A stretch of DNA of 64,000 bases from an uncultured candidate division Zixibacteria bacterium (GCA_963668625.2 CAXXKA010000004.1:128001-192000), one strand, 5' to 3'. Counted from the stretch's first letter, positions 46,933 through 63,990 are shown. Numbers and translations: made by a program. Notes: generated by a model from the letters alone, not told the origin.

Positions 46933-46984
46933 AATTATCTGTTGTAGCCTTTCATTATCACTTAGTATGTATTTCGCTACAACA

Positions 46985-47012
46985 ATTATAAGCATATATT
47001 ATTATTTGTCAA
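46985..47012 (-). promoter_or_regulatory. Consensus sigma70 promoter of the TrmB gene
   Basis: TTGACA-N16-TATAAT. Confidence 0.65.
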
Positions 47013-47745
47013 GTTAATTCATAACTATATGTACAATTACTAGTTACACGAAACGAAAAGCATAAATAAACTAAGCTTTAAAAGTATTAATGTCAATTTA
47101 TTATCAGATAACTAATTAAAGCGACCTTCATAGAGGCCGCCTTCGGTAGGTCACGATCTTAAGTTGTAACTACTGTAATATCCCGCTTCTAATGAGACAA
47201 TTTTGAATTTGAACTATGACTGTTGTAGATATTTAAAGCTCTTATCCTTGTAGCTATACCGTCAAGGAATAACTTGGTCACAGTACAATAAAAACCACTG
47301 AGATTTACGCCCATCTGGCGGATTCGCACAAGTCTGAGATGATTTTCAGGCTACCATATTAGAGCCAAAATGGCAAGGTTTGTTGACTCATTGTTGACTT
47401 GGGATTTGAATTACAGAGACAGCTCACGTATATGCCCTACCACAGAGATAGCAGTCTCACAGTCTATTCTTCCCGCTTGTAGCTTTAGGCAGGTTTTCTT
47501 AATGGAAGAACCGTTATTACCGTATTGTTGACTTAAAATTATTGTGTTTGGATTATAAAAACAATAAAATTTAAAGATATTCTAACAATAACTGACTTGA
47601 CTTTAAAGCTTAATACTGATTGTATAAAGTAAGGATTTCTAACATCAGAATGAGAGGTTCGTTTTGGTTAAATGACTTCGAGGCTAATTTCTATATAGAA
47701 AATGATTATTATAACTAATACTTATCGAAAAACATGGAGGTGTGA

Positions 47746-48975
47746 ATGAGTAACCCAAAAATAATTTTAGCATGGGTATCAGTGTATCTTAACTTTTTGC
47801 TAATAATCCCATGCTGTTACGCCCAATTAATTTCAATTGACGAGTACTTAAATTCGGCAATGGCTGATAAGCAGATAGAACTCACATATAGTGAAAATAT
47901 TGAGGGAGTGTACTATTCAACAGTGTTATCGGACAAATACATCGCTATTACAGAAGCCAGTTTATTGGCAAAAACCTTTGAAAAATACGAAACACATAGT
48001 TTTCAGATACCCGAGGATATCCATATCTTATCAAGTAGCAATAAACAACTAAACCTTAAAATAGATAGCAGTAATTTTAAAGTGACTGGATTTTTTACAT
48101 CAGATGGTGAAGACTATTTTATTCATTCAAAATTATTTAATAATAAACATAGAGCTAACATCTGTAATATGCGGGGAGAACATATACGTGCTTTGAATTG
48201 CCCGCCTGAAGTTAGATGCTCGCCCAGTGGAAAATACTTTTATTTAAAACGTGAGACTTCGGCTCTGCCAGTTTATGATGAAATTGGTAACAAAAAATTC
48301 TATATCGAGTGCTTGGGGGATTATGTTGCTGAACCTGTTAACGATTCAATGCTTCTGGTATTAGATGCTAAGTATCTTTCTTTGTGGAACATCAATACAG
48401 AACAAGAGATATGGAAAATCGAAGTTCCATTTAGTACTTTTAAGGTAATAGGGAGATCGGTTATAAAGCATTCAGTTAAAAATAACCTAATTGTATTTAA
48501 TGATTGGGACGAGTGTTTTGCTTTTGATTTTTTGGGGAAATTTCTTTGGAGACTCGAATTTGATGATAAAAAGGATGCAATGTTATTAATGATAGGAATA
48601 AATGAAAACTCTAAGGAGCTAGTAACTATAAAACGCGATTATAATGTTAGGAATTTAGTGGCTAGTTTTTTTGACTGTAATGGCTCTCTAAAAAATGAAT
48701 TAAACTTGCAGGTTAACAGTTCTGAAGGATCATACATCGCATGGAATACAAATTTACTTGTCTATGATAACTATTTAATTGCACCACTCTTATCTACAGA
48801 TTGGAGTAATCCTGAGTATGTAACGAGCATAATATCTTTAACTAAACAGGATCCCGAAGTTTTTAATGTTGAAGGTTTTTGGTATCCCCTCACAGACAAC
48901 AACGATAATATGGCCTTTGTTGGGGTAACTTCTGTTGGTAACTCAATAAGGGTTTATAGGGTGATGAACGATTAG
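47746..48975 (+). CDS. Exported hypothetical protein, possible beta-propeller
   Basis: GGAGG SD, signal peptide, SPSGKY and FDFLGKFLW blade-like motifs; AT-rich. Confidence 0.65.
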   Translation: MSNPKIILAWVSVYLNFLLIIPCCYAQLISIDEYLNSAMADKQIELTYSENIEGVYYSTVLSDKYIAITEASLLAKTFEKYETHSFQIPEDIHILSSSNKQLNLKIDSSNFKVTGFFTSDGEDYFIHSKLFNNKHRANICNMRGEHIRALNCPPEVRCSPSGKYFYLKRETSALPVYDEIGNKKFYIECLGDYVAEPVNDSMLLVLDAKYLSLWNINTEQEIWKIEVPFSTFKVIGRSVIKHSVKNNLIVFNDWDECFAFDFLGKFLWRLEFDDKKDAMLLMIGINENSKELVTIKRDYNVRNLVASFFDCNGSLKNELNLQVNSSEGSYIAWNTNLLVYDNYLIAPLLSTDWSNPEYVTSIISLTKQDPEVFNVEGFWYPLTDNNDNMAFVGVTSVGNSIRVYRVMND

Positions 48976-48985
48976 GGAGGTTTTC

Positions 48986-49496
48986 ATGCTAAAGCATTAT
49001 TTACTATCAATGTATCTGTTTAGTGGGGATGTCTACTGTTATATTTGCAGAACTTTGGCCGATAGGCGGAACACCTGCACCAGACTTTATAACTAGCGCT
49101 TGTGGCCATAGGTATGATACTCGATATGAAAACTGCTATGGCTTTCATGATGCATTGGATATTCAAGCCTCCTTTGTTCCAGTCTTTAATACGCAGATTG
49201 ACGATGGATATGGTTCTTATCCTGTGGATTTTAATCATGATCCAGAATATGTTCTGGGAAAAAATGTGACGCTTGCCCTTGGACCGGACTATATAGGGGA
49301 AATAAGATATTGTCACCTTGATAGATTTGAAATAGATCTTCCCGAATATGGGCCATATGAGGAGGTTTCACCTGGACAACACATTGCTTATAGCGGCACT
49401 ACACCACATGTAGGTGCTCATTTGCATTACAATTACAAAAATGGTGGATGGCTCTGGATTAACCCACTTCATAATTTGACTTGCCCAAATCCATGA
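48986..49496 (+). pseudogene. M23 metallopeptidase, frameshifted in signal peptide and probably truncated
   Basis: HDALD, AHLHY, INPL motifs; the SD-linked ATG 48986 is one base out of frame with the 49023 ORF. Confidence 0.65.
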
Positions 49497-49499
49497 ACA

Positions 49500-49531
49500 A
49501 ACGGGTTACAGTAGAATCACTGTAACCCGTT
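49500..49531 (-). terminator. Terminator downstream of tRNA-Leu
   Basis: 13-bp perfect stem AACGGGTTACAGT/ACTGTAACCCGTT. Confidence 0.65.
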
Positions 49532-49538
49532 ATCTATC

Positions 49539-49624
49539 TGCCGGAGGCCGGAATCGAACCGGCACGAAAGTTACCCTTCGAGGGATTTTAAGTCCCTTGC
49601 GTCTACCTATTCCGCCACTCCGGC
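49539..49624 (-). tRNA. tRNA-Leu (TAA), CCA not encoded
   Basis: GCCGGAG/CTCCGGC acceptor stem, AGGGA-CTTAAAA-TCCCT anticodon arm, long variable arm, GGTTCGATTCC. Confidence 0.97.
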
Positions 49625-49727
49625 GCGAATCTCACGAAAATTCTTTCGATCCTTAAAAACGACCTGTCATAATTAATCTAAAGCGGTCTTTAAGTCAAGA
49701 GACAAAATCGCATTAGCATAAAAAAAG

Positions 49728-49799
<72 letters not shown>

Positions 49800-49860
49800 A
49801 TCGAACTTGAAATATTGTAAATCGGTATCACATCCCGATTTTATTTCATACACTTCGTGA

Positions 49861-49888
49861 AATATAGAGCGACTATTAATATTGTCAA
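49861..49888 (-). promoter_or_regulatory. Sigma70 promoter of the tRNA genes
   Basis: TTGACA-N16-TATATT. Confidence 0.55.
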
Positions 49889-49929
49889 GCGAAATTCCAC
49901 TATAGCACCGTATGGGATTCGATAAGAGT

Positions 49930-49958
49930 TTGACATTCATGATGTTAGGTAGTAGAAT
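49930..49958 (+). promoter_or_regulatory. Sigma70 promoter of the DUF488 gene (likely leaderless)
   Basis: TTGACA-N17-TAGAAT, 6 nt before ATG 49965. Confidence 0.65.
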
Positions 49959-49964
49959 ATTTCT

Positions 49965-50420
49965 ATGTCGGAAAAACTCATTCAACTGTACAATATTGGA
50001 TACCAGGGTTTATTAATTGATGAATTCCTGACAATTCTAATAAAGAACAATATTGAAACAGTGATTGATATCAGGCGCAATCCGTATTCGCGCTATAAAG
50101 ATTTCTCCCGGAAGAGGCTTAGCAACAGTCTGAGCGCATCTAATATAGAATACCATCATTGCGAGGAGTTAGGTAGTCCCGATAAAATTCGCCTGCAATT
50201 AAAACAGGATGGAGATTACAGCTCGTTTTTCGAATATTATACCGAGCACCTTAACACCCAGAGTGACACATTAATAGATCTGCTTAATTTAGTATCACAC
50301 AAAACAGTATGCTTGCTATGCATGGAGCATGATATTAATATCTGCCATAGAAAGGCAGTTATCAGCAAACTTCAGCAGTTAGCGGCGCCAGAGCTCAAAA
50401 TCGATTCGCTGAATTTGTAA
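49965..50420 (+). CDS. DUF488 family protein
   Basis: IGY, VIDIRRNPYSR, ELG, CLLCME....CHR. Confidence 0.85.
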   Translation: MSEKLIQLYNIGYQGLLIDEFLTILIKNNIETVIDIRRNPYSRYKDFSRKRLSNSLSASNIEYHHCEELGSPDKIRLQLKQDGDYSSFFEYYTEHLNTQSDTLIDLLNLVSHKTVCLLCMEHDINICHRKAVISKLQQLAAPELKIDSLNL

Positions 50421-50673
50421 ACTTTTCGATTGAAATAGCTGTTTCTCTATAATATAGTTAATTTTCGAAAGAGCTATAAGCTTTACGGGGAGAGTGCTTT
50501 TTACTACTGATATCCGATTAAATATTACCATATGTGATGTCATTAACATCTTGACATCATTTGTGATGGTTGGCATATTGTTCTTGAGAGCTACAGAAAA
50601 TATCTTTTGCCTCTTGAGCTAAACTTGAATGTTAATAAATTTTACACTAAAACTTTTTTTGGAAAGGACTGCT

Positions 50674-53600
50674 ATGAGTTTTCAGGGAGTTACTCTAAAA
50701 CCCGGTATGTATTTGCCGGTACTTCTAATTATTGCATCGCTATTCCTTTCCGGTACCGCCTTAGCCGGAGAAATCAAGCCGCCGCTTGATGAGTTAATCG
50801 ATAAGGCAGAAACCGGTGAGATGATTAAAGTAATCGCCGTACTTAAGGATAAAATCGACAATCAGGAGCTTGACAACCGCCTGAAGGCCCGCAAAGCCAA
50901 CCTTCAGCAAAGACACTTCGAGGTAATCAGCAGCCTTCAGGAAAAAGCAACTATAACTCAGAGTCCGGCGCTCGATTTGTTATCCGAGCTTGAAAACAGA
51001 GGTCAAGTTAAAGATATCAAGAATTTCTGGATCACCAACGCCATCGCTTTCAGAGGCACTAAAGAGGCGATCGAGAGAGTGGCCAATCACGAGGATATTG
51101 CCCTGGTTTCTTTCGATATGCCTGTCGAGCTGATCGAACCGGTAAAAAGCAGCAACCATTCCGAACCGCTTACCGCCTCCCATTCTCAGGGCCTGGATGT
51201 AATGAATGCTCCGGCAGTCTGGGCTATGGGCTACACCGGCGCGGGGCGACTCGTCTCCAATATCGATACCGGCGTTGACGGCAGCCACCCGGCGTTGTCC
51301 CCAAGCTGGCGAGGTAATAATGGCCATCCAGCCTCAGAATGCTGGTACGATCCGGTAAACGGTACCACCACCCCCACCGATGACGGCTCGCACGGCACAC
51401 ACACTATGGGCACTATTTGCGGCAGAAGCAATACCACTTACGATACGGTCGGTGTTGCCATTGATGCCCAGTGGATATCGGTTTCCGTTATTGATGTCTC
51501 CGGTTCGACGACCTCGGATGTAATAGACTGTTTCGAATTTATCGCCGATCCGGACGGCAATCCGGCTACGATGGATGATGTCCCGGACGTTGCCAGTAAC
51601 TCCTGGGGATGGTCACCTCTGTTCCACGGTGTTCCGGCCTGCGATACGACTTTCTGGGATGTAATGGATGCTACCGAGAACGCCGGCGTGGTAGTGGTTT
51701 TCGCCGCCGGTAACGAGGGCGATTACGGCTCGAGTAGTCTTCGCACTCCCTCCGATAGAGCCACCACCGCTTATAACGCTTTTTCGGTAGGCGCAATTGA
51801 CGGCCATACCGCCGGCTATCCTATCGCATATTTCTCCTCGCTCGGCCCGAGCACCTGTGCCTCCGGCGATCTGAATATCAAGCCCGAAGTTGTCGCTCCC
51901 GGAGTTGATATTTACAGCTCTATTCCCGGCGGCGGTTATTCCGGCGACTGGAGCGGCACCTCGATGGCCTGTCCGCATATCGCGGGCGCAGTGGCTATTA
52001 TCAGGCAAGTCAATCCCGGCCTGACAGTCGATCAGGTTAAGGAAATAATTATACAATCCTGTGTTGATTTGGGCAGCCCCGGCCAGGATAATACTTTCGG
52101 CAACGGCTACCTCGATCTGCTCACCGCCGTTCAGCTTGCCGGAACCGGTTTCGGCTGGATAGAGGGATATGTTCGGGATGATGTCTATAACAATCCGCTG
52201 CCGGCAACGGTCAGTCTCGAAGGCACCAGTATCTCGACTGTCTGTAACGCTCAGGGATATTTCATGCTCGGCGCCGCCCCGGATACCACTTATACCGTAG
52301 TGGCATCCTACAGCGGTTACGGTCAGGATGACGCCCAGGTTTATGTCATTCTCGATGACACGGTTTCGCAAAATTTCTTCCTGAGCCCGCCGTTAATCGA
52401 TTATTCTCCGGTTAGTTTCAATGTCTCGGTTCCGCCGGGAGAAACGACCGATCGTGATCTGACTATCACCAATACCGGATCAGGTACTCTGAATTATAGC
52501 TTGGCCACGGAGATTTACGATTTCGTTAATCGCGAAACCGGTGAATCGGTACCAGTGGCATTATCCGCTCCGCAACCCGAGCCACTTGGCTATCGAATGT
52601 CAGATAGCGATAAACCCGGCGCAGGTATGGAGCCATATTATCCGCCGGTTGTTACCGGTCAGGGCGGCCCGGATACCTACGGCTACACCTGGATAGATTC
52701 CGATGAGGCCGGCGGCCCGCCTGCTACCTGGATTGATATATCAGGCTCGGGAAATACTGTCGATCTCGATGATGATGATACTGTTAACGTTTCAATCGGA
52801 TTCTCATTCCCTTTCTATGAAAACACTTACACCAGCTTGTATATCTGTTCCAACGGCTTTGTCATTTTCGGTACTCCGGATGTTGAGTTCGATAATGAGG
52901 CTATTCCCAATACCGGGACGCCGAATAATATGATCGCCGCCTTATGGGATGACCTGGCGCCGCATCGCGGTATCGGCTCGGTCATGCATTACTACGACAG
53001 CGCCAATAACAGGTTCATCGTCTCCTGGATAGGCATCCCGTTCTACTACTCGACCGGCGCGGTGAACGCGCAGATCGTGATTTATCCCAATGGTATTATA
53101 GAATGCAACTACCAGACTCTCGACGGCGGAACACATGGACTGGATGAAGCAACCATCGGGCTGGAGAACTCCAGCGGCACGGATGGCCTTCAGGTTTGCT
53201 TCAATCAATCGTACATTCACAGCAACATGAGCATACTGTTCAGTTCCGGCTACTGGCTCTCAGTCGACCCGGCGAGCGGTTCGGTTAACTCCGGTTATTC
53301 CGACATTGTCGATGTTATATTCGATGCAACCGAGTTGGAGGAGGGCACCTATGACGGTAATATCAACCTGTACAACAACTCCGCCAACAACGATGATATA
53401 GATATACCGGTTACTCTTCATGTGAGCGATACGCCTACCCCGCTTATCGAGCTTAGCGTCTCGGCTATTTACGATACGGTCTATGCCGGTTACTCGACCA
53501 ATTACGAACTTGTGATAACCAACAGCGGCGATACCACCCTGACATATTCGATATCGGATAATCGTGCCTGGATAGATGAGTCGCCGTCCGGTGGTGATAT

Positions 53601-54924
53601 TCCTGCTGGTGATAACGACCCTATCACGATCTCATTCGACGCCGGCTCGCTCAGCCCCGGCAATCTCACCGGTACGGTAACCGTAAACTCCAACGATCCT
53701 GAAAACGCTACGATCAATGTACCGGTTTATCTCTTCGTCGATCTTCTGGTGACAACCGATGTCGGCGTTACCGATATATTCGAACCGGCCGATTCGCTGG
53801 TTACCGAATCGGAGTTCCCGATTAAAGTCGAGGTAACGAATTTCGGCAGCGATCCGCAAACTTTCGATGTGGTATTCGAGGCATATTACCTTGATGCCCC
53901 CGCCCCGCTCTACACTACTAGCATGACAATTTCGAATATGCCGGACAGCAGTACCGGCGAATACACTTTCCCCAACGGATTTACTCCGGATATCGACACC
54001 ACCTATACCTTCATCGCTTACACCGACCTGGCAGGCGATCAGGTACCGGGCAACGATAGCTTCGAGAAATCGGCCAGGGCGTATAATTTCGTGAGTATAT
54101 GGTACGGCAATCTCGATTTGAGTCCGGTCGAGGCGCCTGTAGGTGAAATGGGTATGGTTGATGTTTACATCCGTACACCGGCAAATGCCTACGTAGCCGA
54201 TATGCATCTCTGTCTCGGTTCGGATGATTCCTACATCGTAAGTTCGGTCAGCGATTCCAACGGCGCGGTGTATTATCCCCTGACAGAATGGTCATCGGCG
54301 TTTTTCATTGGCCCTTACGGCTCGCCGCCGAATGACGAGGGTTGGAGCAGTGAATCTCTTATCGGCTTCTCGCGTCTCTCGCGTACCCTGGATGACAATC
54401 CCTGGCTGTATTCCGAGACGCCGTTAAAAATCGCTTCCTTCGCCAAGGTTTATATAAATGATGACGGCTATGTCGGCGAGGCATTCCCGGCGCTTGGCCC
54501 CGGCATCAATCCGGTTCAAGGCCCCACTAACGTTGGTGATACGCTCGGCGGATTAGGTTATTCCGCAATCGAAATGTTCAGTGAGATAGTGTTTACCGAG
54601 CCGGCCTCGGGGTGCGATTACATGCCCGGTGATGTTAACGGCGATAAAACGATTATCGGTAGTGATGTTACCTACGCGGTCAACTATTTCAGGTCGATAG
54701 GCGATCCCCCGCCTGATAGCTGCTGGAACGAAAGCACTGACGATTGGCTGTATTCGGCGGCCGATTGTAACGGCGACTGTCTGTTCATCGGCGCGGATGT
54801 TACCTACCTGGTGAACTATTTCCGTGGTTTCAATCAGATGCTATACTGCCCTGACACTCCGCCATTGGACCCGGGCCTGGTAGCAGGCAGCCAGCCGGGA
54901 AAATATCCCGCGAACCGGAAATAG
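50674..54924 (+). CDS. Secreted S8 subtilisin-like protease (bacillopeptidase F-like) with Ig-like/nidogen-like modules and dockerin-like tail
   Basis: Triad IDTGVD, HGTHTMG, GTSMACPH; FAAGN; PGDVNGD..GSDVTYAVNYFR; start MSFQ after AAAGGA. Confidence 0.93.
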   Translation: MSFQGVTLKPGMYLPVLLIIASLFLSGTALAGEIKPPLDELIDKAETGEMIKVIAVLKDKIDNQELDNRLKARKANLQQRHFEVISSLQEKATITQSPALDLLSELENRGQVKDIKNFWITNAIAFRGTKEAIERVANHEDIALVSFDMPVELIEPVKSSNHSEPLTASHSQGLDVMNAPAVWAMGYTGAGRLVSNIDTGVDGSHPALSPSWRGNNGHPASECWYDPVNGTTTPTDDGSHGTHTMGTICGRSNTTYDTVGVAIDAQWISVSVIDVSGSTTSDVIDCFEFIADPDGNPATMDDVPDVASNSWGWSPLFHGVPACDTTFWDVMDATENAGVVVVFAAGNEGDYGSSSLRTPSDRATTAYNAFSVGAIDGHTAGYPIAYFSSLGPSTCASGDLNIKPEVVAPGVDIYSSIPGGGYSGDWSGTSMACPHIAGAVAIIRQVNPGLTVDQVKEIIIQSCVDLGSPGQDNTFGNGYLDLLTAVQLAGTGFGWIEGYVRDDVYNNPLPATVSLEGTSISTVCNAQGYFMLGAAPDTTYTVVASYSGYGQDDAQVYVILDDTVSQNFFLSPPLIDYSPVSFNVSVPPGETTDRDLTITNTGSGTLNYSLATEIYDFVNRETGESVPVALSAPQPEPLGYRMSDSDKPGAGMEPYYPPVVTGQGGPDTYGYTWIDSDEAGGPPATWIDISGSGNTVDLDDDDTVNVSIGFSFPFYENTYTSLYICSNGFVIFGTPDVEFDNEAIPNTGTPNNMIAALWDDLAPHRGIGSVMHYYDSANNRFIVSWIGIPFYYSTGAVNAQIVIYPNGIIECNYQTLDGGTHGLDEATIGLENSSGTDGLQVCFNQSYIHSNMSILFSSGYWLSVDPASGSVNSGYSDIVDVIFDATELEEGTYDGNINLYNNSANNDDIDIPVTLHVSDTPTPLIELSVSAIYDTVYAGYSTNYELVITNSGDTTLTYSISDNRAWIDESPSGGDIPAGDNDPITISFDAGSLSPGNLTGTVTVNSNDPENATINVPVYLFVDLLVTTDVGVTDIFEPADSLVTESEFPIKVEVTNFGSDPQTFDVVFEAYYLDAPAPLYTTSMTISNMPDSSTGEYTFPNGFTPDIDTTYTFIAYTDLAGDQVPGNDSFEKSARAYNFVSIWYGNLDLSPVEAPVGEMGMVDVYIRTPANAYVADMHLCLGSDDSYIVSSVSDSNGAVYYPLTEWSSAFFIGPYGSPPNDEGWSSESLIGFSRLSRTLDDNPWLYSETPLKIASFAKVYINDDGYVGEAFPALGPGINPVQGPTNVGDTLGGLGYSAIEMFSEIVFTEPASGCDYMPGDVNGDKTIIGSDVTYAVNYFRSIGDPPPDSCWNESTDDWLYSAADCNGDCLFIGADVTYLVNYFRGFNQMLYCPDTPPLDPGLVAGSQPGKYPANRK

Positions 54925-55283: not shown

Positions 55284-55670
55284 TTAGCTGGTGCCTCTCA
55301 GTTTTGCCTCTGTCTTCGATATTAACCGATCGACCTTGCGGTTAACGCAGGCACGCGCCACTCGCTCGGCGGTATCTTCTCCCACACCGGTTACCTCAAT
55401 TATTTTATCGATCGCTTTATCGAGCCAGACCGACCAATGAGCATCGGGATAACGACCGGCGAAATAGTCAGTGACATCATCGGCAATAACCAGCAGGTGA
55501 TGCGCCGTGCTGCGCGCCAGCTCGGTTTTCAAAAGCGGCAGCAGGTATTTTTTAGCAATGAATCCGAGGGCGATTATAAGAAGCGAAATAACCGCCTCGA
55601 GACCTTTATCGCCGATAAATCCGAATATGCTGCCGAACAAACCGGCTTTGATTACGATTAACTCCTGCAT
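55284..55670 (-). CDS. Small membrane protein, holin-like (LL-H type architecture)
   Basis: One TM helix followed by a helical domain; last gene of the operon. Confidence 0.45.
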   Translation of the reverse strand: MQELIVIKAGLFGSIFGFIGDKGLEAVISLLIIALGFIAKKYLLPLLKTELARSTAHHLLVIADDVTDYFAGRYPDAHWSVWLDKAIDKIIEVTGVGEDTAERVARACVNRKVDRLISKTEAKLRGTS

Positions 55671-55707
55671 TTATCCTCCTGTGATATTTATCATTATGAA
55701 ATTGAAT

Positions 55708-57096
55708 TTATTGAAGCTCCCAGCCGGGGTATTGAGGCACGCTTCTATTTATCCGATAGATCACACCCTCATCATTTTTGACAGTGAACAGGTATTTCAA
55801 ATCGGGATCGGATAGAAGCGGGCTGGAAATGATATCCATACACCAGTAACCCGAGCTATCGGTGTGGGCAGATTTGGTAAACGGGGTGATAACGGCATTA
55901 CCGAAACGAACGGGATGATACTCCCTGGGAATCTCGGCGGTGATCGTGATACCCGACAAGCTATCGCCCGAGATATCATACACCCAACCATAAACGCGGC
56001 ACAGTCCCGGCAGCGGCGGCTCGCCCGGATCGAATCGTCCCATGTACAGGCTGTCGGTTCCGCCGCCCTCCTCGACAACCAGCGTATCGAGTATCTGGTT
56101 GTGACCGTTGGCGGTCAGCTCGATCCAGTAGCTATCGGGATCTAGCGCTAAATATATCACGCCATCATTGTCGGCAACGATGCCGGAGGCTTTCAATGTC
56201 GTTTGATCCAGCGATCTCACACTCAATCGCGCACCCTGCAAACGCGATAAATCGGTTGCCGAAAATACGATCAATGTCTCCGGTTCGGTTCCGCCACCGG
56301 GAATGGCTACCGATACTAAATCATCCCTGATATTATTACCCGGGCCGGCCATACCGGAATAGTAACCGAGTTTATCGTGAATCGAGGTGTAGCCATCCAG
56401 AGTATGACCATGTTTGCCGACATAAATGCGCACGGTATCGAGCTGGTCTTTTATATTGCCGGTACCGGCGCAGCCATCATAGCCAAGCCCCAGCTTCATG
56501 TTCAGAGTCGGGATCGGCATTGAGCGGAAGGGGCTGCCCACCCAGGCGTATATCGAATCCGCCCTCATGGCGACCTCGAGCAATGAATCGGGGATAGAGC
56601 CGGCGGCTATGGCATAATGAGCGAACGATCCGGCCCCGGTATCGACAACAGCCGAATCAGCCATCAACGCGGACAGTATGGCATTGTAAATATCGAGTGA
56701 ATCGAGTTGTTGATCCAATGGGTTCTGCCCTACATAGTAGTTATGATTGGCCATCGAGTAATAATTGCCGTTGCCCGAACCGCAGGCATGTACGATATAC
56801 TGCCCGATATTTTCGCCGGCGCGATATCTTTTCATGTATAAACCGCCACTGTACCCAAACATGCCGGGTGAACTAATTGTATCGGCGGTGATCGTATCGC
56901 CGCCGGGAGAGTACCGATATATGAATAGAGTATCCGGCTGCTCGAATTTCAACGCCAGCGAATCCCACATACTGATATACACCCACACCGAATCATCAGC
57001 AGAGTCGTCGCCGTTATCGTAGTATCCTAAAAAATCCGCCATCGTAAATGCGGCGCCCAATAAGCAAATCAACAATATCGCAAACAGTTTTCTCAT
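55708..57096 (-). CDS. Secreted hypothetical protein with C-terminal carboxypeptidase-regulatory-like beta-sandwiches
   Basis: Signal peptide MRKLFAILLICLLGAAFTMA; VYGWVYD..G..L.G..I and TDSSGYW motifs. Confidence 0.6.
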   Translation of the reverse strand: MRKLFAILLICLLGAAFTMADFLGYYDNGDDSADDSVWVYISMWDSLALKFEQPDTLFIYRYSPGGDTITADTISSPGMFGYSGGLYMKRYRAGENIGQYIVHACGSGNGNYYSMANHNYYVGQNPLDQQLDSLDIYNAILSALMADSAVVDTGAGSFAHYAIAAGSIPDSLLEVAMRADSIYAWVGSPFRSMPIPTLNMKLGLGYDGCAGTGNIKDQLDTVRIYVGKHGHTLDGYTSIHDKLGYYSGMAGPGNNIRDDLVSVAIPGGGTEPETLIVFSATDLSRLQGARLSVRSLDQTTLKASGIVADNDGVIYLALDPDSYWIELTANGHNQILDTLVVEEGGGTDSLYMGRFDPGEPPLPGLCRVYGWVYDISGDSLSGITITAEIPREYHPVRFGNAVITPFTKSAHTDSSGYWCMDIISSPLLSDPDLKYLFTVKNDEGVIYRINRSVPQYPGWELQ

Positions 57097-58343
57097 TAAA
57101 AACCTTTCCTAATCTTTCGGGATCTTATGTAGCTATCAACCTGACCCGAGCCTTCCTCGTATTGAACATACACGCTGTAACGATAGCCATTGGCGGAATA
57201 ACCGGACAGGCTATCGTTTGTCCCCCAATCAGTATAGTCATAGCGTTGCTCGAATCCCCACTGACCGGTATAGTCGGCGCACACACGAAGACAGTAATTG
57301 CAATCCTCGCGCCCCTGCCATGAAACAATGTAGTCATCATCCCCGGTGAGCATGCCCGATATCGTACCGCTTATCCATTGACCATCCTCCGGCCCGGTAC
57401 CGAAATTGGTTATAGCGATCTTGTCCCCCGTAGCGATCTTATCACATCCGCCAGGCGTGGAATCGTAGCTGTAGACTATTACAGTGGCGGTACAGGCCGC
57501 GACTGGAGTCGTGCGGTAGGCGCAGATATGAGCCGAAAGTAGTTCACCGGCCGCCTCGTACGGGTCATCATAGTTAACGCGATGGCTGAAATTGACCGTT
57601 TCCAAATGCGCGCCGATTACGCCTTTATCGGTGTAACCGAATGCCGGATCGACTACGATCGGATAGACGGCGTTTTCGATGAAAGTTTCAGGGATTATCA
57701 AGGTCAGCAAGCTCAAAGTCGTGTCGATATCAATCTCGCATCTGACCGTATCATCGCTGCTATCCCAGGCGCTCGGGCAATAAATATGGAATGCTTTCCC
57801 CCGGACGCCGTCACCTGACATATGATAAACGGCATATGAGCCGGGAATATCATCATTAAACTGCCAATCGAGGCGATGGGCCTCGAACGTATCCGGCTGC
57901 TGGTAGTAGAAAATCAGATACTCCGTGTCTATCGTATATATCAATCGGTTCGATTCGGGTTGGCCGTTTAATACTATCTCCCATTCCAGCATCTCTGATG
58001 ATTTCATGTAGATATCATGCCTGTCGGCGTTTTCGTATAGGCAGGCTCTCGAATCGGCCAGATTCAGCGAGTCGGTATCGGGTAAGATTACTTTCAGATA
58101 GCCGGAGTCGAGACGGTCGGATATCGTGAATCCGTAAAAATTATCGGTGCTATCGGCTTTGCCAATCATTACCCTGCGTATATCCTGCTCATCGCTGAAT
58201 CTAATCATACTTGAACCGGCTGCCGTATCAATTACAATCTCATAAGATGAATACGAATCATCACACTCCCCACCGCTGCAAGAATAAAGCATGAGCTCGG
58301 CCAGCAGCAAAACAAGAGCAGGTATATTCGGTCTTTTAATCAT
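57096..58343 (-). CDS. Putative lipoprotein/exported beta-rich protein
   Basis: Start MIKRP; hydrophobic stretch ending LYSC; AVYPIVVDP motif. Confidence 0.55.
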   Translation of the reverse strand: MIKRPNIPALVLLLAELMLYSCSGGECDDSYSSYEIVIDTAAGSSMIRFSDEQDIRRVMIGKADSTDNFYGFTISDRLDSGYLKVILPDTDSLNLADSRACLYENADRHDIYMKSSEMLEWEIVLNGQPESNRLIYTIDTEYLIFYYQQPDTFEAHRLDWQFNDDIPGSYAVYHMSGDGVRGKAFHIYCPSAWDSSDDTVRCEIDIDTTLSLLTLIIPETFIENAVYPIVVDPAFGYTDKGVIGAHLETVNFSHRVNYDDPYEAAGELLSAHICAYRTTPVAACTATVIVYSYDSTPGGCDKIATGDKIAITNFGTGPEDGQWISGTISGMLTGDDDYIVSWQGREDCNYCLRVCADYTGQWGFEQRYDYTDWGTNDSLSGYSANGYRYSVYVQYEEGSGQVDSYIRSRKIRKGF

Positions 58344-58359
58344 TTTGAAATCCTCACCT

Positions 58360-59172
58360 TCAGGCCTTTCCCGGAGACTTAAAAGTACCGAACGAGCCGA
58401 TGAATTTTTCCAGAAGATTATAAGCATCCCGCTTGTATTGATCTGATAAAGCCGACCAAGTGGCGCTGATATTGTTGTTCGATCCCGAGGACACCGCCCA
58501 CATTGCCTTTATCCTGCAAATAACCGAAATCGATAAGTAAGTCTCGGCGACGACCAGTGATCTGTCGGTGGAAGACGAGTATACCGAATCGATGAAATTC
58601 AACACTTGCTCGTTAGCCTCGCTGATAGCGTTGGCGATTGTCTCATCGGTGATAAAAACATGCTCGGTGGTGTAGTCGACATACAGCCATTGGCCGATCT
58701 CGATATCGCCCGGGGCCAGGCGTTTGATAGCCCCCGTTTGATAGTCGATCGAGTAATCGACACCTCGGGTGTATACCCGGAAAGGCATATACCAGATCGA
58801 TATGTTTTCCCAATGGGGTATATCGCCGTCAGGGATGAGCGATATCACGCCGGTATTGTATTCGATCGTATAATCGATATTTTCCCTGTAAATATGTCCC
58901 AGCGAGCTATCGGAGGCGACCACTACCGAATCACGGATGAGGTTGTTCTTTACGAGAGCCACCTGGTTTTGCTCCTCGAAAATGATATCCTGATAATCGG
59001 GTTTGATCTGCTCTTTGGCTTTCACTTTCTCGGAGTTTTCGGTAACCGGCGGATAGCGAACCAACCCGGCGGAGTTATCATCGATTTTGACAGGCTCGGA
59101 ATCGATCTCGCTTATGGAGATATGATTTTCGAGTATATGTTTTCTCACGGTATCAATAGTCGTAAAACTCAT
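58360..59172 (-). CDS. Virion-type protein, probable head-tail connector-like with inserted beta domains
   Basis: N-terminal FTTIDTVRK and C-terminal ITDETIANAISEANEQV helices; two Y.E..DY.I.Y..G.I repeats. Confidence 0.45.
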   Translation of the reverse strand: MSFTTIDTVRKHILENHISISEIDSEPVKIDDNSAGLVRYPPVTENSEKVKAKEQIKPDYQDIIFEEQNQVALVKNNLIRDSVVVASDSSLGHIYRENIDYTIEYNTGVISLIPDGDIPHWENISIWYMPFRVYTRGVDYSIDYQTGAIKRLAPGDIEIGQWLYVDYTTEHVFITDETIANAISEANEQVLNFIDSVYSSSTDRSLVVAETYLSISVICRIKAMWAVSSGSNNNISATWSALSDQYKRDAYNLLEKFIGSFGTFKSPGKA

Positions 59173-59552
59173 GGCAGATCAACCTCCATAATTAACAGAT
59201 CAACCAGGCCGTCCTGGCTCGTGTCATGGTCGGGAATTTCGCGGGCAACCGAGAACCCGTTCGATGAGGGTTGCCCTACCAAATAGCAATGAGAGGAGTT
59301 ACGAGGTATCAGCATCACAACCGGATTGTTGATTTCTCCGGGCAACCGGTTCCCCCTCGAGTCAACCAGTTCATCGTAGCTGATAACCTGGCTTTTACCG
59401 CCGATAGACTCATCGGAGTACATGACTCGTTTCGTGCCGGCATGTTCGGTCATCAGCATACGGACGGATACGGCCTCGCTGTTGCCCCAGACGAGCAGGT
59501 TTCGCACCAGCCATTTTCGATTGCTTTTCAAATAGTCGAGTGTCAGGTTCAT
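59169..59552 (-). CDS. Hypothetical protein in head operon
   Basis: ATGA overlaps at both ends. Confidence 0.65.
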   Translation of the reverse strand: MNLTLDYLKSNRKWLVRNLLVWGNSEAVSVRMLMTEHAGTKRVMYSDESIGGKSQVISYDELVDSRGNRLPGEINNPVVMLIPRNSSHCYLVGQPSSNGFSVAREIPDHDTSQDGLVDLLIMEVDLP

Positions 59553-60976
59553 ACGCTCCCCCTTGCCAGGCTGAGATCATCGCATTTCGGCACGGCCGTA
59601 ATCTGCGTTCCGATCGGTGGTACGGTAAGTTCGACTGCCACCCGGGCACGAACCCAGTATTTAAACACTCCGTTGACCGTGCAGCCCTGCCAGTTGTCCG
59701 GAATGTTGGCGGTATCGTTCCAGAGATAGATTACCGTCTCGGCCTCATCCAAATCCGAATCGCCGGAGTAAGGCGAAAACGAGGCCCAGTGGCTGCCATT
59801 ATGATATTCCCATACTATAGAGCCGCCGGTCGCCGTAATCGCGAGTATGACAGACAGGCAGTAGAATTTGCTTTCGCTGCCGAAATATGCGATATCACCA
59901 GCAGCGCTAAGCAAAGCATTAGAGGCGGGATGATATATATCGGCTATGGTTTCGGAGGCTGCGTTTTCCGTAACATCCTCGTATAGCGAACTCGAGCTTT
60001 CGAACAGTTGGACACTATCCATCACCCCGATTTGCTTTACCAGGTCGAAAGAGTCGAATCCGGTAGCGTTCTTGATCGCGTATTTCGGCAAGTGACGGTT
60101 GTTACCGATGGCCGCCGCGAAAAAGATATACGGTTTCACCGATTGATATTGAACCTGCGGTGAAATCGCCCGACCTGAATACACCTCGTATAAACCGCCC
60201 AGCGAAACACCATCGAATTCGCGGAAGTAAACGCAGTTTTCCTCCGATGGCGCGAATGCTATACCAAGCTTCATATCGCCCGATAAAGCACCGTCGAAAT
60301 CCGAATCGATATACTCACCCGAGTATACCAGCAGCGAGGGTTCCCAGGCCGAGACATGTTTGCGAACGTACAGGCTAGATCTGTTTTCGGTGTATAGCGC
60401 CAACACGTAATTCGAGACACAACAGATCGAGACATATGGCATCTCGTCCGAACCGCTAGAAAGCTGTGCGCCCGTATCGGTCGGGCCGCCTCCCCAGGTT
60501 ATACCGCTATCCAGTGATGATTTCGCCTTGATTTCGTACTCCTCCTTGACCGAGTCATAGTAGGCGTACGCGCACCACAGGTCGCCCTCGATATTGCGAG
60601 CGATAACCGGGTAATAGGCCGCGCCTTCCTCGAGTACGGTACTGGGCGCGCCGCTTGTCCACATACCGCTTACGAAAGGCAGTCTGAAAAATATCAGATT
60701 GAGCGTGGTCTGTTGGACATAGATCACGTAAATATTTCCCTGGCTATCGATGCATGCCGAGGGTGGATAATCGGCGGAGTCTGTCACATGATTGTACGGA
60801 CTCGACCAGATCGTATAGGGCGGATCGGCCCAGGTGGTGGCGATAGTATTCGGTGATTCGTTATAAAGGCAAAACATCCTGCCGGCATAAGGCCCGGTAT
60901 CTATTTTCAGAAGTTTACGTTGCGGCGGTACACCCGAGGCGATGGCGGCGCTCGAGAAATCCAATAATTTATGCAT
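59549..60976 (-). CDS. Beta-propeller (BNR/Asp-box) plus beta-sandwich protein
   Basis: SLDSGITW Asp-box, DSQGNIYVIY blades, WEYHNGSHW...TVNG..KYWVR. Confidence 0.55.
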   Translation of the reverse strand: MHKLLDFSSAAIASGVPPQRKLLKIDTGPYAGRMFCLYNESPNTIATTWADPPYTIWSSPYNHVTDSADYPPSACIDSQGNIYVIYVQQTTLNLIFFRLPFVSGMWTSGAPSTVLEEGAAYYPVIARNIEGDLWCAYAYYDSVKEEYEIKAKSSLDSGITWGGGPTDTGAQLSSGSDEMPYVSICCVSNYVLALYTENRSSLYVRKHVSAWEPSLLVYSGEYIDSDFDGALSGDMKLGIAFAPSEENCVYFREFDGVSLGGLYEVYSGRAISPQVQYQSVKPYIFFAAAIGNNRHLPKYAIKNATGFDSFDLVKQIGVMDSVQLFESSSSLYEDVTENAASETIADIYHPASNALLSAAGDIAYFGSESKFYCLSVILAITATGGSIVWEYHNGSHWASFSPYSGDSDLDEAETVIYLWNDTANIPDNWQGCTVNGVFKYWVRARVAVELTVPPIGTQITAVPKCDDLSLARGSV

Positions 60977-60986
60977 AAAACGAAAA

Positions 60987-61010
60987 GGGAGCGATTAACC
61001 AACCGCTCCC
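60987..61010 (-). terminator. Hairpin/attenuating terminator after the capsid gene
   Basis: GGGAGCGGTT-GGTT-AATCGCTCCC-TTTTCGTTTT. Confidence 0.65.
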
Positions 61011-61025
61011 CTGCCTCCTTAAATT

Positions 61026-62132
61026 TTAGCTGTGGTTGATATCCAGTACTATCGCGGCATCCTCGATTATTTTAGCGTATGCTACAGACTCGGAGATTAC
61101 CGCCTCCTCGAGACGTTGCTCTATCACTTTGTCGTACTCGACTGTCAACGGTTGCGAGTAGACCTCCTCCAGCGCGAAACGATTATCCAGCCCTACGATA
61201 TAGTCGTTGGCGACCTCATCGCATCTGACCAGCGTGGCGCCCAGAGGTGAGGTGATCTCCCCCGAACTCTGGAACTTGAATCCGATCATGGGATCCTTGA
61301 ACTCGCTGATATTGAGAATGTCCCTGATCACGTTCTTGTGGCAAACCATTACGCGCGGCTGATACGGGAAAAATTCGTTGAAAAATTTAACCATGTCCTC
61401 GTAATCGAGAGTCCCGGAAACATCGGTGGTTACGATACCGGCGGAGTTATCGTTGCCATCCCCGTTGATAAGCGTATCGACCGCCATGGCCACTCTATCG
61501 GATGCCAGGCGATAACCGATGTACCACAGCAGCACCTTGAACTGGGCCATGGTCCGGTGGCGAAGCGCTTTGTATGTCACCTTGAGAGTCAAACCGTAAT
61601 CGGGGATAGTAACGGTGTTGGCCTGGTCGGTCACGAGTATCGAGGGTACCTCGGCAGCCTCGCTTATCGGTCGAAGCGACAGGCTATCATCGGTGGCGCT
61701 GGTATCGATATGGAAAGGCGTGTATCGCGAGGTGGCTACACCTGAGGTCGAGGCAATCAGTTTGCCCAGCTCGGGGCGCATGTTCTGCCCTCGTCGTATT
61801 TCCCGCATCATGAACTCCGGCATTAAAGCAGCCGCCGAACGGTAAAACATCTCCACGGTAACAGGCGAACTGCCACCGGTACGCAAACCGTGATAAGCCA
61901 ACTGGCGCTCGAAAGCATCAAGAGGCGAACCGGCGGGCGAGGGATCATACTCGGGCAGTTCGAGAAGTTCAGAAAGCGAAAGGCCGAATTTCTGCGACTC
62001 GAGATACAGATTTTTATCGATTTTGATTTTCGAGGTGTTGGAGAAATCGACCGGGCCGGCAGGTAAATCATCCCGCGAGGCTAAATCCGACATCCTGTTC
62101 ATTACTGAATTATTCATAGTATTCATATTCAC
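61026..62132 (-). CDS. Major capsid protein (HK97-fold, inferred)
   Basis: About 365 aa; ISEAAEVP E-loop-like, YGLTLKVTYKAL strand, LINGDGN, terminal strands; follows decoration gene. Confidence 0.75.
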   Translation of the reverse strand: MNMNTMNNSVMNRMSDLASRDDLPAGPVDFSNTSKIKIDKNLYLESQKFGLSLSELLELPEYDPSPAGSPLDAFERQLAYHGLRTGGSSPVTVEMFYRSAAALMPEFMMREIRRGQNMRPELGKLIASTSGVATSRYTPFHIDTSATDDSLSLRPISEAAEVPSILVTDQANTVTIPDYGLTLKVTYKALRHRTMAQFKVLLWYIGYRLASDRVAMAVDTLINGDGNDNSAGIVTTDVSGTLDYEDMVKFFNEFFPYQPRVMVCHKNVIRDILNISEFKDPMIGFKFQSSGEITSPLGATLVRCDEVANDYIVGLDNRFALEEVYSQPLTVEYDKVIEQRLEEAVISESVAYAKIIEDAAIVLDINHS

Positions 62133-62138
62133 TCCGGG

Positions 62139-62555
62139 TTATAAAATTATGGTAACCTCGCTCGTACCGTTAACATCAATGACCGTGCCGCGGCCGATAT
62201 TACCACCGGCGGGATCGTAACCGGTCAACGCCGGTACCTGGCGAACCGAACCGTCGCCGTCAACTACCACGGCCTCGCCGGGCGAGGGCACCGTAGCGGC
62301 AGCCGATAAACTCATCACGCCGGCTACCTGCACCGTAGCTACACGATTGTTGTCCAGATCAGTCAGTGAAAGATCAATCAGCTTGCCGATAAGCTTGTCG
62401 CCGTCGGAGCCGAGGTTGACCTCGTAATTGCCGGCCAATGCAACGGCCTTACCGATATCGCCATCGTTCAAATCGTTCTCATCCGCCGTGCGATGTACCT
62501 TGAAACTCAAATACACCGCGCCGGTGGTTTCCAGATTATGTTCTCTTATTGCCAT
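62139..62555 (-). CDS. Capsid decoration/cement-like protein
   Basis: 138 aa Gly/Val-rich beta protein, GKAVAL...VATVQVAG...PGEAVVVDGDGSV, directly before capsid. Confidence 0.6.
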   Translation of the reverse strand: MAIREHNLETTGAVYLSFKVHRTADENDLNDGDIGKAVALAGNYEVNLGSDGDKLIGKLIDLSLTDLDNNRVATVQVAGVMSLSAAATVPSPGEAVVVDGDGSVRQVPALTGYDPAGGNIGRGTVIDVNGTSEVTIIL

Positions 62556-62567
62556 TTGTTCTCCTTG

Positions 62568-62981
62568 TTAACAACGATAGTCCTCGGGCTTTGCCGGAGG
62601 CTCCATCCTGTCATTCAGTTTAATCGTGTGCTTCGAGTAGCCGCCGAATATGGCGTTGATCGATTCGGTGATCTCCTGCTTCAAAGCGGTGAGCTTCTCG
62701 TATTCCAGATCATCCGAGTTAAGGTATTTTTCGGCCTGGCTGATTATGCCGCTTCCGCCTGAGCTTTTGAGTACTCTGAGTCGCGCCAGAAGGCTGTTTT
62801 TGGTATCCTCGATTAACCTCTCCCCCAACTCGAATCGGGGAGCGATTGCCTCCAGCAAGTTTTTTGTCATGGATAAAGCAGCTTTAATTTTATCGAGATT
62901 AACAAAGCCGCTTTCCGGCGCCGATTGCAGGGCGACCGAGGCGCTTTCCAACTCTGCCAGACATTGATCAATTTTCAACAT
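62568..62981 (-). CDS. Helical protein, possible scaffold
   Basis: Amphipathic helices; AAGGAG SD; between protease and decoration genes. Confidence 0.5.
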   Translation of the reverse strand: MLKIDQCLAELESASVALQSAPESGFVNLDKIKAALSMTKNLLEAIAPRFELGERLIEDTKNSLLARLRVLKSSGGSGIISQAEKYLNSDDLEYEKLTALKQEITESINAIFGGYSKHTIKLNDRMEPPAKPEDYRC

Positions 62982-63252
62982 TATTCTCCTTATGATTTAA
63001 TTGAACCTCAATCCTCATCAACCGCGTAATAACATCCTCGCGCAGCCTGAAAAAGTCCTCCTTGGTGGCAAAACTTCCGGCCAGTCGGGTCTCGAGATTC
63101 GATATTCGTTTGTCAAGTGTGGCAACGAATCCCTCCTCGGCTTTCCCGGCCATGTCGATTTTCAAGCCGGCAATCGTCGTGTAATAGGTGGAAAAAGCCG
63201 CCAGCAGGGCTATTGACAGAGTCACCACTAAATGACGGTATCTCTCCCACAT
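62968..63252 (-). CDS. Small single-TM coiled-coil protein
   Basis: LVVTLSIALLAAFSTYYTTIAGL TM; FATKEDF..LREDVITRLMRIE. Confidence 0.6.
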   Translation of the reverse strand: MWERYRHLVVTLSIALLAAFSTYYTTIAGLKIDMAGKAEEGFVATLDKRISNLETRLAGSFATKEDFFRLREDVITRLMRIEVQLNHKENNVEN

Positions 63253-63255
63253 GCT

Positions 63256-63990
63256 CTAAAAATCCTCTTGTTTGATAAGGTTGAAATGATAGCCGTTGAT
63301 AATCGCTTTAAAAGTATTCCTGGATTTGACGGGATTTTCTAAAGCCAAATCGACTGCCGGAGTAAGCGTGTAAATACCGGATGATTCCATATTACCGGGT
63401 TTATCATGAAGTTTATCGGTTATGGAGGTACCGGGAATGGAGCCGCGATAGACCAGTGAGGTCTCCAGTACTCTCTCCACTCCCCGGTAGAGGAAAAATA
63501 TATCCTCGCCTACCTGATGACCGCAAAGGCGAATGTCCTTGCCACAGGCCGAGCATTCGGGATAGGTATAGGTGAAACTTACTGAGCACTCTTTGTAAAT
63601 CCCGGAATCGATATTAAGCTTGAGACGGGTTGCGCCCTCGGCCTCTCTAAGCCAGTAGAAATAACATTTGATCCAGAGATTATCACCCTTTTCGACTGTC
63701 TCGGCATAGAAATTACGGGCCACCGGCAAGCCCGATTTATCATGACCGATTAACACCGGCGAATCGACAAACAGTCTGGCTATAGCCGGCAGATCAGCGC
63801 GAGCGAATCGCCCACCATACGAGTTGACAGAATCGCTGATTATATACATCGCTCTAACGTGGATATCCCCGGCTGTAACCGGTACGGGGGGTTTGATATC
63901 GGCGTTAATCATATCTATGTATTTCTGCATATTTTTATCAACCAGAGTGGCTGTTAGCTGGGCAGACTGAATTGCGTTTATTATTCCCAT
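63256..63990 (-). CDS. Prohead (capsid maturation) protease, HK97-type, with CxxC..C.H insertion
   Basis: LIGHD (His), ECSVSF (Ser), ETSLV (Glu), CSACGKDIRLCGH. Confidence 0.7.
   Translation of the reverse strand: MGIINAIQSAQLTATLVDKNMQKYIDMINADIKPPVPVTAGDIHVRAMYIISDSVNSYGGRFARADLPAIARLFVDSPVLIGHDKSGLPVARNFYAETVEKGDNLWIKCYFYWLREAEGATRLKLNIDSGIYKECSVSFTYTYPECSACGKDIRLCGHQVGEDIFFLYRGVERVLETSLVYRGSIPGTSITDKLHDKPGNMESSGIYTLTPAVDLALENPVKSRNTFKAIINGYHFNLIKQEDF

Follow-up and report, generated by a model that had tools for sequence, protein, structure and literature searches.

Gene transfer agents (GTAs) of the Rhodobacter capsulatus type (RcGTA), which are also found in Caulobacter, are encoded by a chromosomal, phage-derived structural cluster of about 15 kb. 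This cluster has no integrase or replication genes, and parts of the system may reside at separate loci. BaGTA, VSH-1, Dd1, VTA and other independent GTAs illustrate that the structural modules of tailed phages have repeatedly been domesticated to package host DNA. To our knowledge, all other known GTAs keep recognisable tails, and GTAs are known from a handful of lineages. Capsid-forming phage-inducible chromosomal islands (PICIs) are satellites whose heads are completed with the tails of co-infecting phages; they are mobile, carry genes for integration, replication and regulation, and have a patchy distribution. Here, we describe a stretch of 64,000 nucleotides (G000:C4:128001-192000, referred to as the window) from the genome of an uncultured candidate division Zixibacteria bacterium (G000), which contains the capsid half of a gene set for a phage-type head. 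The gene set is probably a domesticated, GTA-like DNA-packaging particle system that is derived from a tailed phage and has been inherited vertically since the ancestor of the Zixibacteria.

RcGTA-type GTAs are inherited vertically, are under purifying selection and co-evolve with their hosts, according to a published account (PMC10883770). The Zixibacteria gene set is also vertically inherited, chromosomal and about 15 kb in size, lacks integrase and replication genes, and is split in some of the loci. It is somewhat richer in GC than its surroundings, as is the RcGTA cluster. The model of one of its proteins, g13, matches an RcGTA virion chain (6tba_2A, Z 7.8), a likeness at the level of the fold only and tied with that to many phage adaptors. 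The two systems differ in origin, which is independent: the Zixibacteria capsid protein is closest to those of metagenomic long-tailed phages, with at most 36% identity. In contrast to RcGTA, the portal gene precedes the terminase gene, and genes for tube, tape measure, distal tail or fibres were not found. Where a scaffold would be expected, the Zixibacteria set has a membrane-anchored protein, and it also has a phylum-specific propeller protein and secreted beta-sandwich proteins. Its range is the whole phylum, with a capsid protein that evolves as slowly as RpoB, and gene transfer is its putative function.

The repertoire is similar to that of PICIs (terminase, portal, probable protease, capsid, head-tail connector, no tail), but the locus lacks integrase, replication and regulation genes and is inherited vertically. 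With encapsulins it shares a host-encoded shell of a phage-capsid-type protein. Encapsulins, however, have no portal, terminase, adaptor or decoration protein, and all four are in the Zixibacteria set. In full-text literature searches, none of BaGTA, VSH-1, Dd1 and VTA was reported from Zixibacteria, and publications on GTAs in general yielded nothing on this phylum. Zixibacteria were linked to GTAs, capsids, terminases or phage-like elements only in seemingly incidental mentions, judged largely on titles and abstracts.

A phylum-wide chromosomal gene set

The window contains eleven minus-strand open reading frames (ORFs), which are arranged head to tail from 63990 down to 55284 and are named g06 to g16 (244, 94, 137, 138, 368, 475, 127, 270, 443, 462 and 128 aa, in this order). 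Their junctions range from a 68-nt overlap to a 49-nt gap, with overlaps of 1-4 nt at three of them. Beyond the end of the window, the reading was extended by 31 kb. From the portal gene through g16, the complete gene set covers 14,454 bases (ca. 14.5 kb), and it is flanked by host genes on a contig of 298 kb. An initial description of the window (the sequence-only reading) had noted eleven intact, tightly coupled genes that are directly followed by host genes, and the ORFs, their junctions and the ordinary downstream genes confirm this. It had also proposed that the host retains this capsid locus, a view that is upheld by the phylum-wide occurrence, the synteny, the congruence of the capsid tree with that of RpoB and the purifying selection detailed below.

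A patchy distribution had been named as evidence to the contrary. Instead, the capsid gene is present throughout the phylum, in 255 of 285 Zixibacteria genomes and 118 of 130 genera, nearly always with one match. Among the genomes with at least 90% completeness and at most 5% contamination, 189 of 198 carry it. A single match was obtained in 37 of 41 relatives. Capsid sequence identity falls with kinship, from 83% within the genus to 74-81% within the family, 66-71% within the order and 53-64% beyond. In GenBank, there are 243 relatives; among the best 80 of these, some metagenome-assembled genomes carry non-Zixibacteria labels.

For the analysis of synteny, 20 kb around the capsid gene were retrieved from 20 genomes, representing ten families, and were searched with the G000 proteins (tblastn, E-value at most 1e-3). 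The capsid gene (g10) and its neighbors g09 and g11 are present in all 20 loci, g12 and g13 in 19 each, g06 in 18, and g07 and g15 in 16 each. Within the retrieved region, the portal gene was found in 13 loci and the terminase gene in 12. Less frequent are g16 (nine loci), a gene for a TPR protein upstream of the cluster (seven), g14 (four), a gene for a PEP-CTERM protein (three), g02 (two) and g08 (one). The order of g12 and g13 is swapped outside of the order to which the window belongs. In one family (f8; loci L020 and L029), inserts of 2.7-4.5 kb are located between the capsid gene, g11 and g13, and the flanking cluster genes are intact.

Portal and terminase were also searched for in 30 whole genomes that were picked because they carry the capsid gene. 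The portal gene was found in all 30, in single copy, and the terminase gene in 29. In four genomes, an adjacent portal-terminase pair is located far from the capsid gene (ca. 90 kb in G021, 108 kb in G237, 410 kb in G204 and 101 kb in G277), and in three others (G022, G133 and G235) the distance is 14-18 kb. As both halves are intact in these split loci, we consider them a host gene set; a mobile element would not survive such splitting.

The capsid protein has diverged together with the host. Across 24 genomes, pairwise identities of the capsid protein and of RpoB are correlated (Pearson 0.91), with means of 62% for the capsid protein and 69% for RpoB. The corresponding values against RpoB, from ten genomes, are 0.89 for the portal protein and 0.94 for the terminase. 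In the maximum-likelihood capsid tree, each of nine families from the Genome Taxonomy Database (GTDB) forms one clade. The tree requires eight changes, which is the minimum and which none of 200 shuffles reached. Three deep groups (f9+f16+f13, f8+f14+f19 and f1+f2) are shared with the RpoB tree, and only one row, the poorly supported G277, is placed differently in the two trees.

Within the genus and family of the window, dN/dS cannot be computed because synonymous sites are saturated (pS of at least 0.75 in all comparisons but one, which is g15 with 0.67). Within the genus, dN is 0.123 for the capsid gene and 0.125 for RpoB, and thus the capsid protein evolves about as slowly as RpoB. Eight cluster genes were compared in the closest available pair of genomes (G013 and G021, with dS of 0.76-1.3). 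The dN/dS values are 0.107 for g06, 0.130 for g07, 0.030 for g09, 0.048 for the capsid gene, 0.089 for g11, 0.115 for g12, 0.094 for g13 and 0.073 for g15, with 0.062 for RpoB as a comparison. With values of 0.03-0.13 for all eight, the unannotated genes are constrained like the capsid genes.

The GC content of the cluster follows that of the host (0.41-0.69) and slightly exceeds that of the flanks in 18 of the 20 loci. In G000, the head operon has 50.5% GC, compared to 45.2% for the genome, which places it among the top 0.4% of windows of equal size.

Capsid, probable protease and packaging motor

Several genes could be attributed to head assembly and DNA packaging. The major capsid protein, the portal protein and the large terminase all have a PHROG match, which points to an HK97-type head and packaging module. 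All genes in this section are encoded on the minus strand. Positions outside of the window refer to L001 (G000:C4:183001-203000); adding 55000 converts them to the scale of the window.

The gene g10 (61026..62132, 368 aa) codes for the major capsid protein (phrog_3922, E-value 8e-61). The protein scores 26 bits against Pfam Phage_capsid_4, with a cut-off of 27, and Pfam matches above cut-off add nothing for any of g06 to g16. A capsid profile search against PDB returned nothing meaningful. Directly 3' of the capsid stop codon, a GC-rich hairpin with a 12-pair stem and a T tail resembles a terminator or attenuator (60985..61012). Its structure is kept, with differing sequence, in 17 of 27 related loci. 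The loci from family f2 lack it and have a gap of 12-22 nt at this position. The hairpin probably raises the output of capsid protein, either as a partial terminator or by stabilising the mRNA.

The preceding gene, g09 (62139..62555, 138 aa), probably codes for a head decoration (cement) protein, as it matches phrog_4588 (virion structural, E-value 5e-9) and phrog_122 (head decoration, E-value 0.005). The first gene of the capsid half, g06 (63256..63990, 244 aa), belongs to phrog_16951 (E-value 1e-14), a family of no assigned function. In phage contigs, members of this family sit between the portal and capsid genes, and one phage homologue matches Peptidase_S78_2 (XkdF-type serine protease) below cut-off (E-value 5e-4). 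His83, Ser136 and a C-x2-C...C-x-H motif do not vary among 18 sequences, and no relative was detected in PDB by a sequence search. It is probable that g06 acts as a prohead protease.

In most families, g06 is considerably longer (480-780 aa), with the protease-like domain fused to a domain that resembles ATP-dependent DNA ligases. Examples are L033:10708-13041 (from G244), L120:1759-4158 (from IMG/VR) and L021:7858-9765. The nucleotidyl-transferase motif of the ligase (EPKYDGIR) is intact in G244 and in one phage contig. Its lysine is replaced (PAYE, PHYD, PYYD and similar) in nine other long Zixibacterial forms, and two shorter forms are unaligned in this region. The domain is absent from the order to which the window belongs. 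A ligase attached to a protein inside the capsid may go back to an ancestral enzyme that was packaged or injected.

Two small genes are located between those for the protease and the decoration protein. The sequence-only reading had considered the 94-aa protein g07 (62968..63252) as a scaffold candidate. It does hold the scaffold position, but it was found to have a conserved transmembrane helix: in all 23 orthologues examined, an N-terminal hydrophobic helix is followed by a charged helical coiled-coil part. The adjacent g08 (62568..62981, 137 aa) is a variable helical protein, possibly a scaffold. It is restricted to the family of the window (seven loci), has 44% identity within the genus, and has no family match in Pfam or PHROG.

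The packaging genes lie upstream of g06, beyond the end of the window. The portal protein, g01 (L001 13463-14737, 424 aa), matches phrog_3753 (E-value 1.5e-32). It is followed by g02 (L001 13041-13463), a basic protein of 140 aa and a possible small terminase, which has no family match in Pfam or PHROG. The large terminase, g03 (L001 11619-12941, 440 aa), matches phrog_2 (E-value 5e-27) and Terminase_6N. A comparison of 12 sequences revealed that Walker A (TGNRWGKS), Walker B (D154-E155), an S-T-P motif and the residues D281, D334, D340 and D410 are invariant or nearly so. According to our own interpretation, these are ATPase and nuclease motifs, and the capacity for packaging would be kept.

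An upstream reading had been suggested to distinguish a host locus from a prophage. It yielded the portal and terminase genes, and no integrase, repressor, replication module or att sites. Families for integration, repression and replication were not detected by Pfam and PHROG scans from ca. 11 kb downstream to ca. 16 kb upstream of the cluster. The 20-kb locus contains no tRNA, and its direct repeats are imperfect and at chance level only. For these reasons, and with a distribution that is not patchy, a classification as a temperate prophage was rejected. An Rfam scan of the 20-kb locus gave no match, and a promoter scan gave only a signal at the level of shuffled sequence.

The neck, the predicted propeller and the tail question

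The gene g13 (58360..59172, 270 aa) codes for a helical bundle that resembles gp6/gp15 and has an inserted beta domain. The model (mean pLDDT 85.7) has one N-terminal and three C-terminal helices, which enclose the beta domain (residues 19-172). The structure that matches best in a structural search is 5ydn, the neck subunit of Mu, with Z 9.8 and an rmsd of 2.9 over 92 residues. It is followed by further adaptors, which are podophage GP4 (Z 8.8), HK97 gp6 (3jvo, Z 8.5), those of phiCD508, JBD30 and cyanophage A4 (Z 8.5) and T4 gp13 (Z 8.4), with Carin-1 lower (Z 7.4), as is the RcGTA chain mentioned above. A feature-based Atlas search points the same way, as a lead only. Foldseek returned scattered low-TM matches only, and a profile search by sequence against PDB returned nothing meaningful. 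On the basis of its model, g13 is a head-to-tail adaptor.

Its neighbor g12 (59169..59552, 127 aa) is a candidate neck or head-completion protein. None of its 14 members has a PHROG match, Atlas scores are below 0.8, and PDB sequence matches are at chance level. The prediction of a g12-g13 complex lends weak support to an interaction (score 0.33, compared to 0.02 for the best of three controls); at least 88% of the contacts agree between runs, and the partner has a pLDDT of at least 70. Of 80 solved complexes, 58 pass the mark applied, as do 2 of 110 mismatched pairs, and the passes with a score of at most 0.60 comprise seven of the 80 solved complexes and both of the passing mismatches.

The 475-aa protein g11 (59549..60976) is predicted to be a BNR/sialidase-like beta-propeller with a conserved C-terminal domain. 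Its profile retrieves only sialidases and BNR proteins from PDB. Among 5.8 billion proteins, 45 homologues were found, all of them labelled as Zixibacteria or without a name, and thus g11 is confined to Zixibacteria as far as the searches reach. Neither g11 nor g13 has a match among GenBank phages. The sequence-only reading had placed the propeller gene after the connector; it is located between the capsid and connector genes.

None of g06 to g16 matches a PHROG or Pfam family for tail tube, sheath, tape measure, baseplate or endolysin. In the whole genome (95.9% complete), Pfam models for sheath, tape measure and baseplate J (PF04984, PF10145 and PF04865) returned nothing, and all three were positive in control genomes; the search with the tail tube model PF06841 is uninformative, as its controls were silent. 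Since the locus codes for a head-to-tail adaptor, it can be described as tail-less only in the sense that the searches for a tube, sheath, tape measure or baseplate found none.

Phage contigs in IMG/VR contain relatives of the portal protein, g06, g09 and the capsid protein, and none of g11, g12, g14, g15 and g16. Where these contigs are long enough, they carry genes for neck, sheath or major tail, and tape measure. The ancestor was therefore probably a long-tailed phage, the tail module of which was replaced or lost. Among GenBank phages, five unannotated metagenomic records match the capsid protein at 32-33%. One of these contigs, L125 (8,420 bases), also has a relative of g13. It is compact and codes for a capsid protein, a 121-aa protein, the g13-like adaptor (29% identity, E-value 3e-32), terminase, portal and a g06-like protease. 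Tail genes are absent from L125, which may represent a related element of a different lineage that consists of head genes only. A single IMG/VR contig, L115 (11 kb), has the same gene order as the Zixibacteria locus and a capsid protein with 59% identity, and all other capsid relatives in IMG/VR have at most 36%. As L115 is a fragment of a Zixibacterial host locus, virus catalogues already hold this domesticated element.

Envelope-associated proteins

Four conserved genes of the cluster code for membrane or secreted proteins. One of them is g07 (see above), and the other three are the last genes of the operon. The exported protein g14 (57096..58427, 443 aa), with a lipobox-like signal in G000, is variable across the phylum. 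A signal peptide is present in all four orthologues examined, and the protein has no match in Pfam, PHROG or PDB.

The secreted protein g15 (55708..57096, 462 aa) has a variable N-terminal half and two conserved C-terminal beta sandwiches of the transthyretin/CnaB type. A signal peptide at the N-terminus is seen in most of the 16 orthologues examined; several have a called start that is too far upstream, with the hydrophobic segment at a more internal position. The model is confident only for residues 265-462. In it, residues 269-356 match transthyretin-like and pilin domains (Z up to 12.9), and residues 365-462 match the chain of a phage neck fibre (Z 10.2). Beta sandwiches of this type are found in pilins, adhesins and a phage neck fibre.

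The small membrane protein g16 (55284..55670, 128 aa) has a conserved soluble domain. Its orthologues have a hydrophobic N-terminus and a conserved ADDVTDYF...W motif. The sequence-only reading had listed two signal-peptide proteins and a holin-like gene. The signal peptides of g14 and g15 and the hydrophobic N-terminus of g16 were confirmed; the label holin-like is a guess. The envelope-linked role that had been suggested is backed by the conserved signal peptides and transmembrane segments, and it may apply.

Genomic neighborhood

The PEP-CTERM gene g05 (L001 9295-10131, PF07589, E-value 8e-8) is encoded on the plus strand and stands between the group of portal, g02 and terminase genes and g06. 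A gene for such an exosortase-sorted protein is found in or beside the cluster in the genus of the window (68% identity in G001). Full-length homologues with 25-27% identity adjoin the cluster in two distant families (L023:3843-4700 and L024:16588-17394). This gene may provide a link to the surface or the matrix.

Past the portal gene, there are genes for the TPR protein, a BamB-like propeller, a RecG-like helicase, a metal-binding protein, a STAND/TPR protein, an MFS transporter and a sigma factor. Downstream of g16, the genes are ordinary cellular ones. They include an exported S8 subtilase of 1431 aa with Ig-like, BACON and CarboxypepD_reg domains (50629-54924, plus strand). Genes for a TrmB-like regulator, DUF488, a small M23 peptidase-like protein and a protein of 409 aa with a faint propeller match lie in a stretch of low GC (46000-50000, 0.36-0.37 compared to 0.45), which may be an island without relation to the cluster. 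Further downstream is a gene for a large exported protein of 903 aa with a type IX secretion sorting domain (43075-45786, minus strand).

Probable function of the putative particles and alternative explanations

That the gene set has been domesticated follows from its distribution, synteny, fixed neighborhood, split loci, co-phylogeny and selection. The packaging motor is conserved, and with a capsid to fill and an adaptor to close the portal, DNA-filled heads would be made. As there are no replication or integration genes, the packaged DNA cannot be a propagating genome. Judging from the genes, transfer of host genes by particles is most likely the function. The GTA-like particle that the sequence-only reading had offered as one option stands. 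Its other option, a nanocompartment, is unsupported because the portal is accompanied by a terminase whose catalytic motifs are intact.

In a GTA-like system, the portal and the large terminase would package DNA into an HK97-type capsid that is made with the protease g06 and the decoration protein g09. The adaptor g13, perhaps jointly with g12, would close the portal, and a tail tube would not be made. The propeller protein g11 may be a module that is placed distally or binds to surfaces. Release from the producer or contact with the envelope of the recipient might be the task of g07 and g16, which are membrane proteins, and of the secreted g14 and g15. A fraction of the cells would release particles that are filled with host DNA, as a gene transfer agent. 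Such a system has three misfits to known GTAs: it has no tail, the protein in the scaffold position is membrane-anchored, and exported proteins are co-conserved with the capsid genes.

It is tempting to speculate that Zixibacteria hold perhaps the oldest and most tightly conserved bacterial viriform, one that has dispensed with the tail. The transmembrane, scaffold-like g07 would serve as the base for head assembly at the inner membrane, the terminase would fill the heads, the adaptor would cap them, and contact to cells would be made via the exported, adhesin-like g14 and g15 and the sialidase-like g11. We consider this elaborate version rather unlikely.

Several points weigh against a GTA-like function. 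The capsid gene is missing in nine of the 198 good genomes and in one family (f6, none of two genomes); therefore, the system is dispensable. In one genome (G064, 99% complete), the terminase was not found with the query used. The possible small terminase g02, with its two of 20 loci, was found only within the order of the window. The best E-value behind the propeller assignment of g11 is 1e-3. Beyond the adaptor, no apparatus for DNA delivery was recognised by the cluster scans and the three genome-wide Pfam tail models. A divergent short tail (nozzle, fibres) may possibly be encoded by g11, g12, g14 and g15 or at another locus. The role of the exported proteins is a guess, because proteins with a signal peptide cannot join a capsid that is assembled in the cytoplasm. 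Finally, the phylum is uncultured.

The best-surviving alternative, which we nevertheless consider clearly less probable than a GTA-like function, is that the domesticated capsid packages DNA for a purpose other than transfer. DNA-filled heads could serve as biofilm matrix or as a nutrient store, or they could be an anti-phage device that sabotages or competes with an infecting phage. The evidence for domestication (distribution, synteny, trees and selection) applies to this use equally. It would also account for the lack of a recognised delivery apparatus, and the four conserved envelope proteins and the PEP-CTERM gene beside the cluster are consistent with it. However, the portal-closing adaptor and the decoration protein suggest stable, finished heads, and conservation at the level of RpoB is unexpected for a gene in an arms race. 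PADLOC defence models match none of 16 cluster proteins, so that a known anti-phage defence was rejected as a candidate.

It is improbable that the locus represents a tail-stealing system that became fixed in the chromosome, with adaptor-bearing, DNA-filled heads that are completed by the tails of co-infecting phages. The restriction to head and connector genes (terminase, portal, protease, capsid and adaptor, with no tail genes) is what such a system would look like, and the nearest phage relatives of the capsid belong to long-tailed phages with sheath and tape-measure genes. There is, however, no integrase, replication or regulatory module, inheritance is vertical rather than patchy, and the split loci could not be mobilised as a unit. 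Moreover, an adaptor that is kept over a phylum-scale time would have to fit the ever-changing tails of the helpers.

We consider it highly improbable that the locus is an intact prophage with a short tail (podovirus-like) or a resident virus of great age that has speciated along with its host. The matches of the g13 model to podophage adaptors (GP4, A4 and Carin-1) would fit such a virus, and g11 could be nozzle-like or spike-like. Genes for replication, integration, lysogeny or lysis were not found in the Pfam and PHROG scans of the cluster and its surroundings, however, and in some genomes the portal-terminase pair is up to 410 kb away. The locus has a single fixed position, with the same host gene adjoining in seven of 20 loci, and IMG/VR holds only one close copy (the 59% fragment), the rest having at most 36% identity.

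Least probable of all is an encapsulin-like nanocompartment or a functionless, decaying prophage remnant: the shell gene of capsid fold without tail genes and a 244-aa protein that can be read as cargo would fit, but portal and terminase are co-conserved with intact catalytic motifs (an encapsulin was rejected on the census of 30 genomes given above), and the genes are under purifying selection with frames open across the phylum.

Implications

For virome studies, it is relevant that these loci are host genes, yet IMG/VR lists at least one fragment as viral. If Zixibacteria have a DNA-packaging capsid that is fixed in the phylum, this would be a new, independent domestication at an unusually deep timescale and with a housekeeping-like conservation. 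If the tail-less viriform is real, DNA would be exchanged by a mechanism unlike that of every tailed GTA. For these bacteria, which are abundant in sediments, the system provides a concrete and testable hypothesis on how genes may be exchanged, or on another function based on a capsid.

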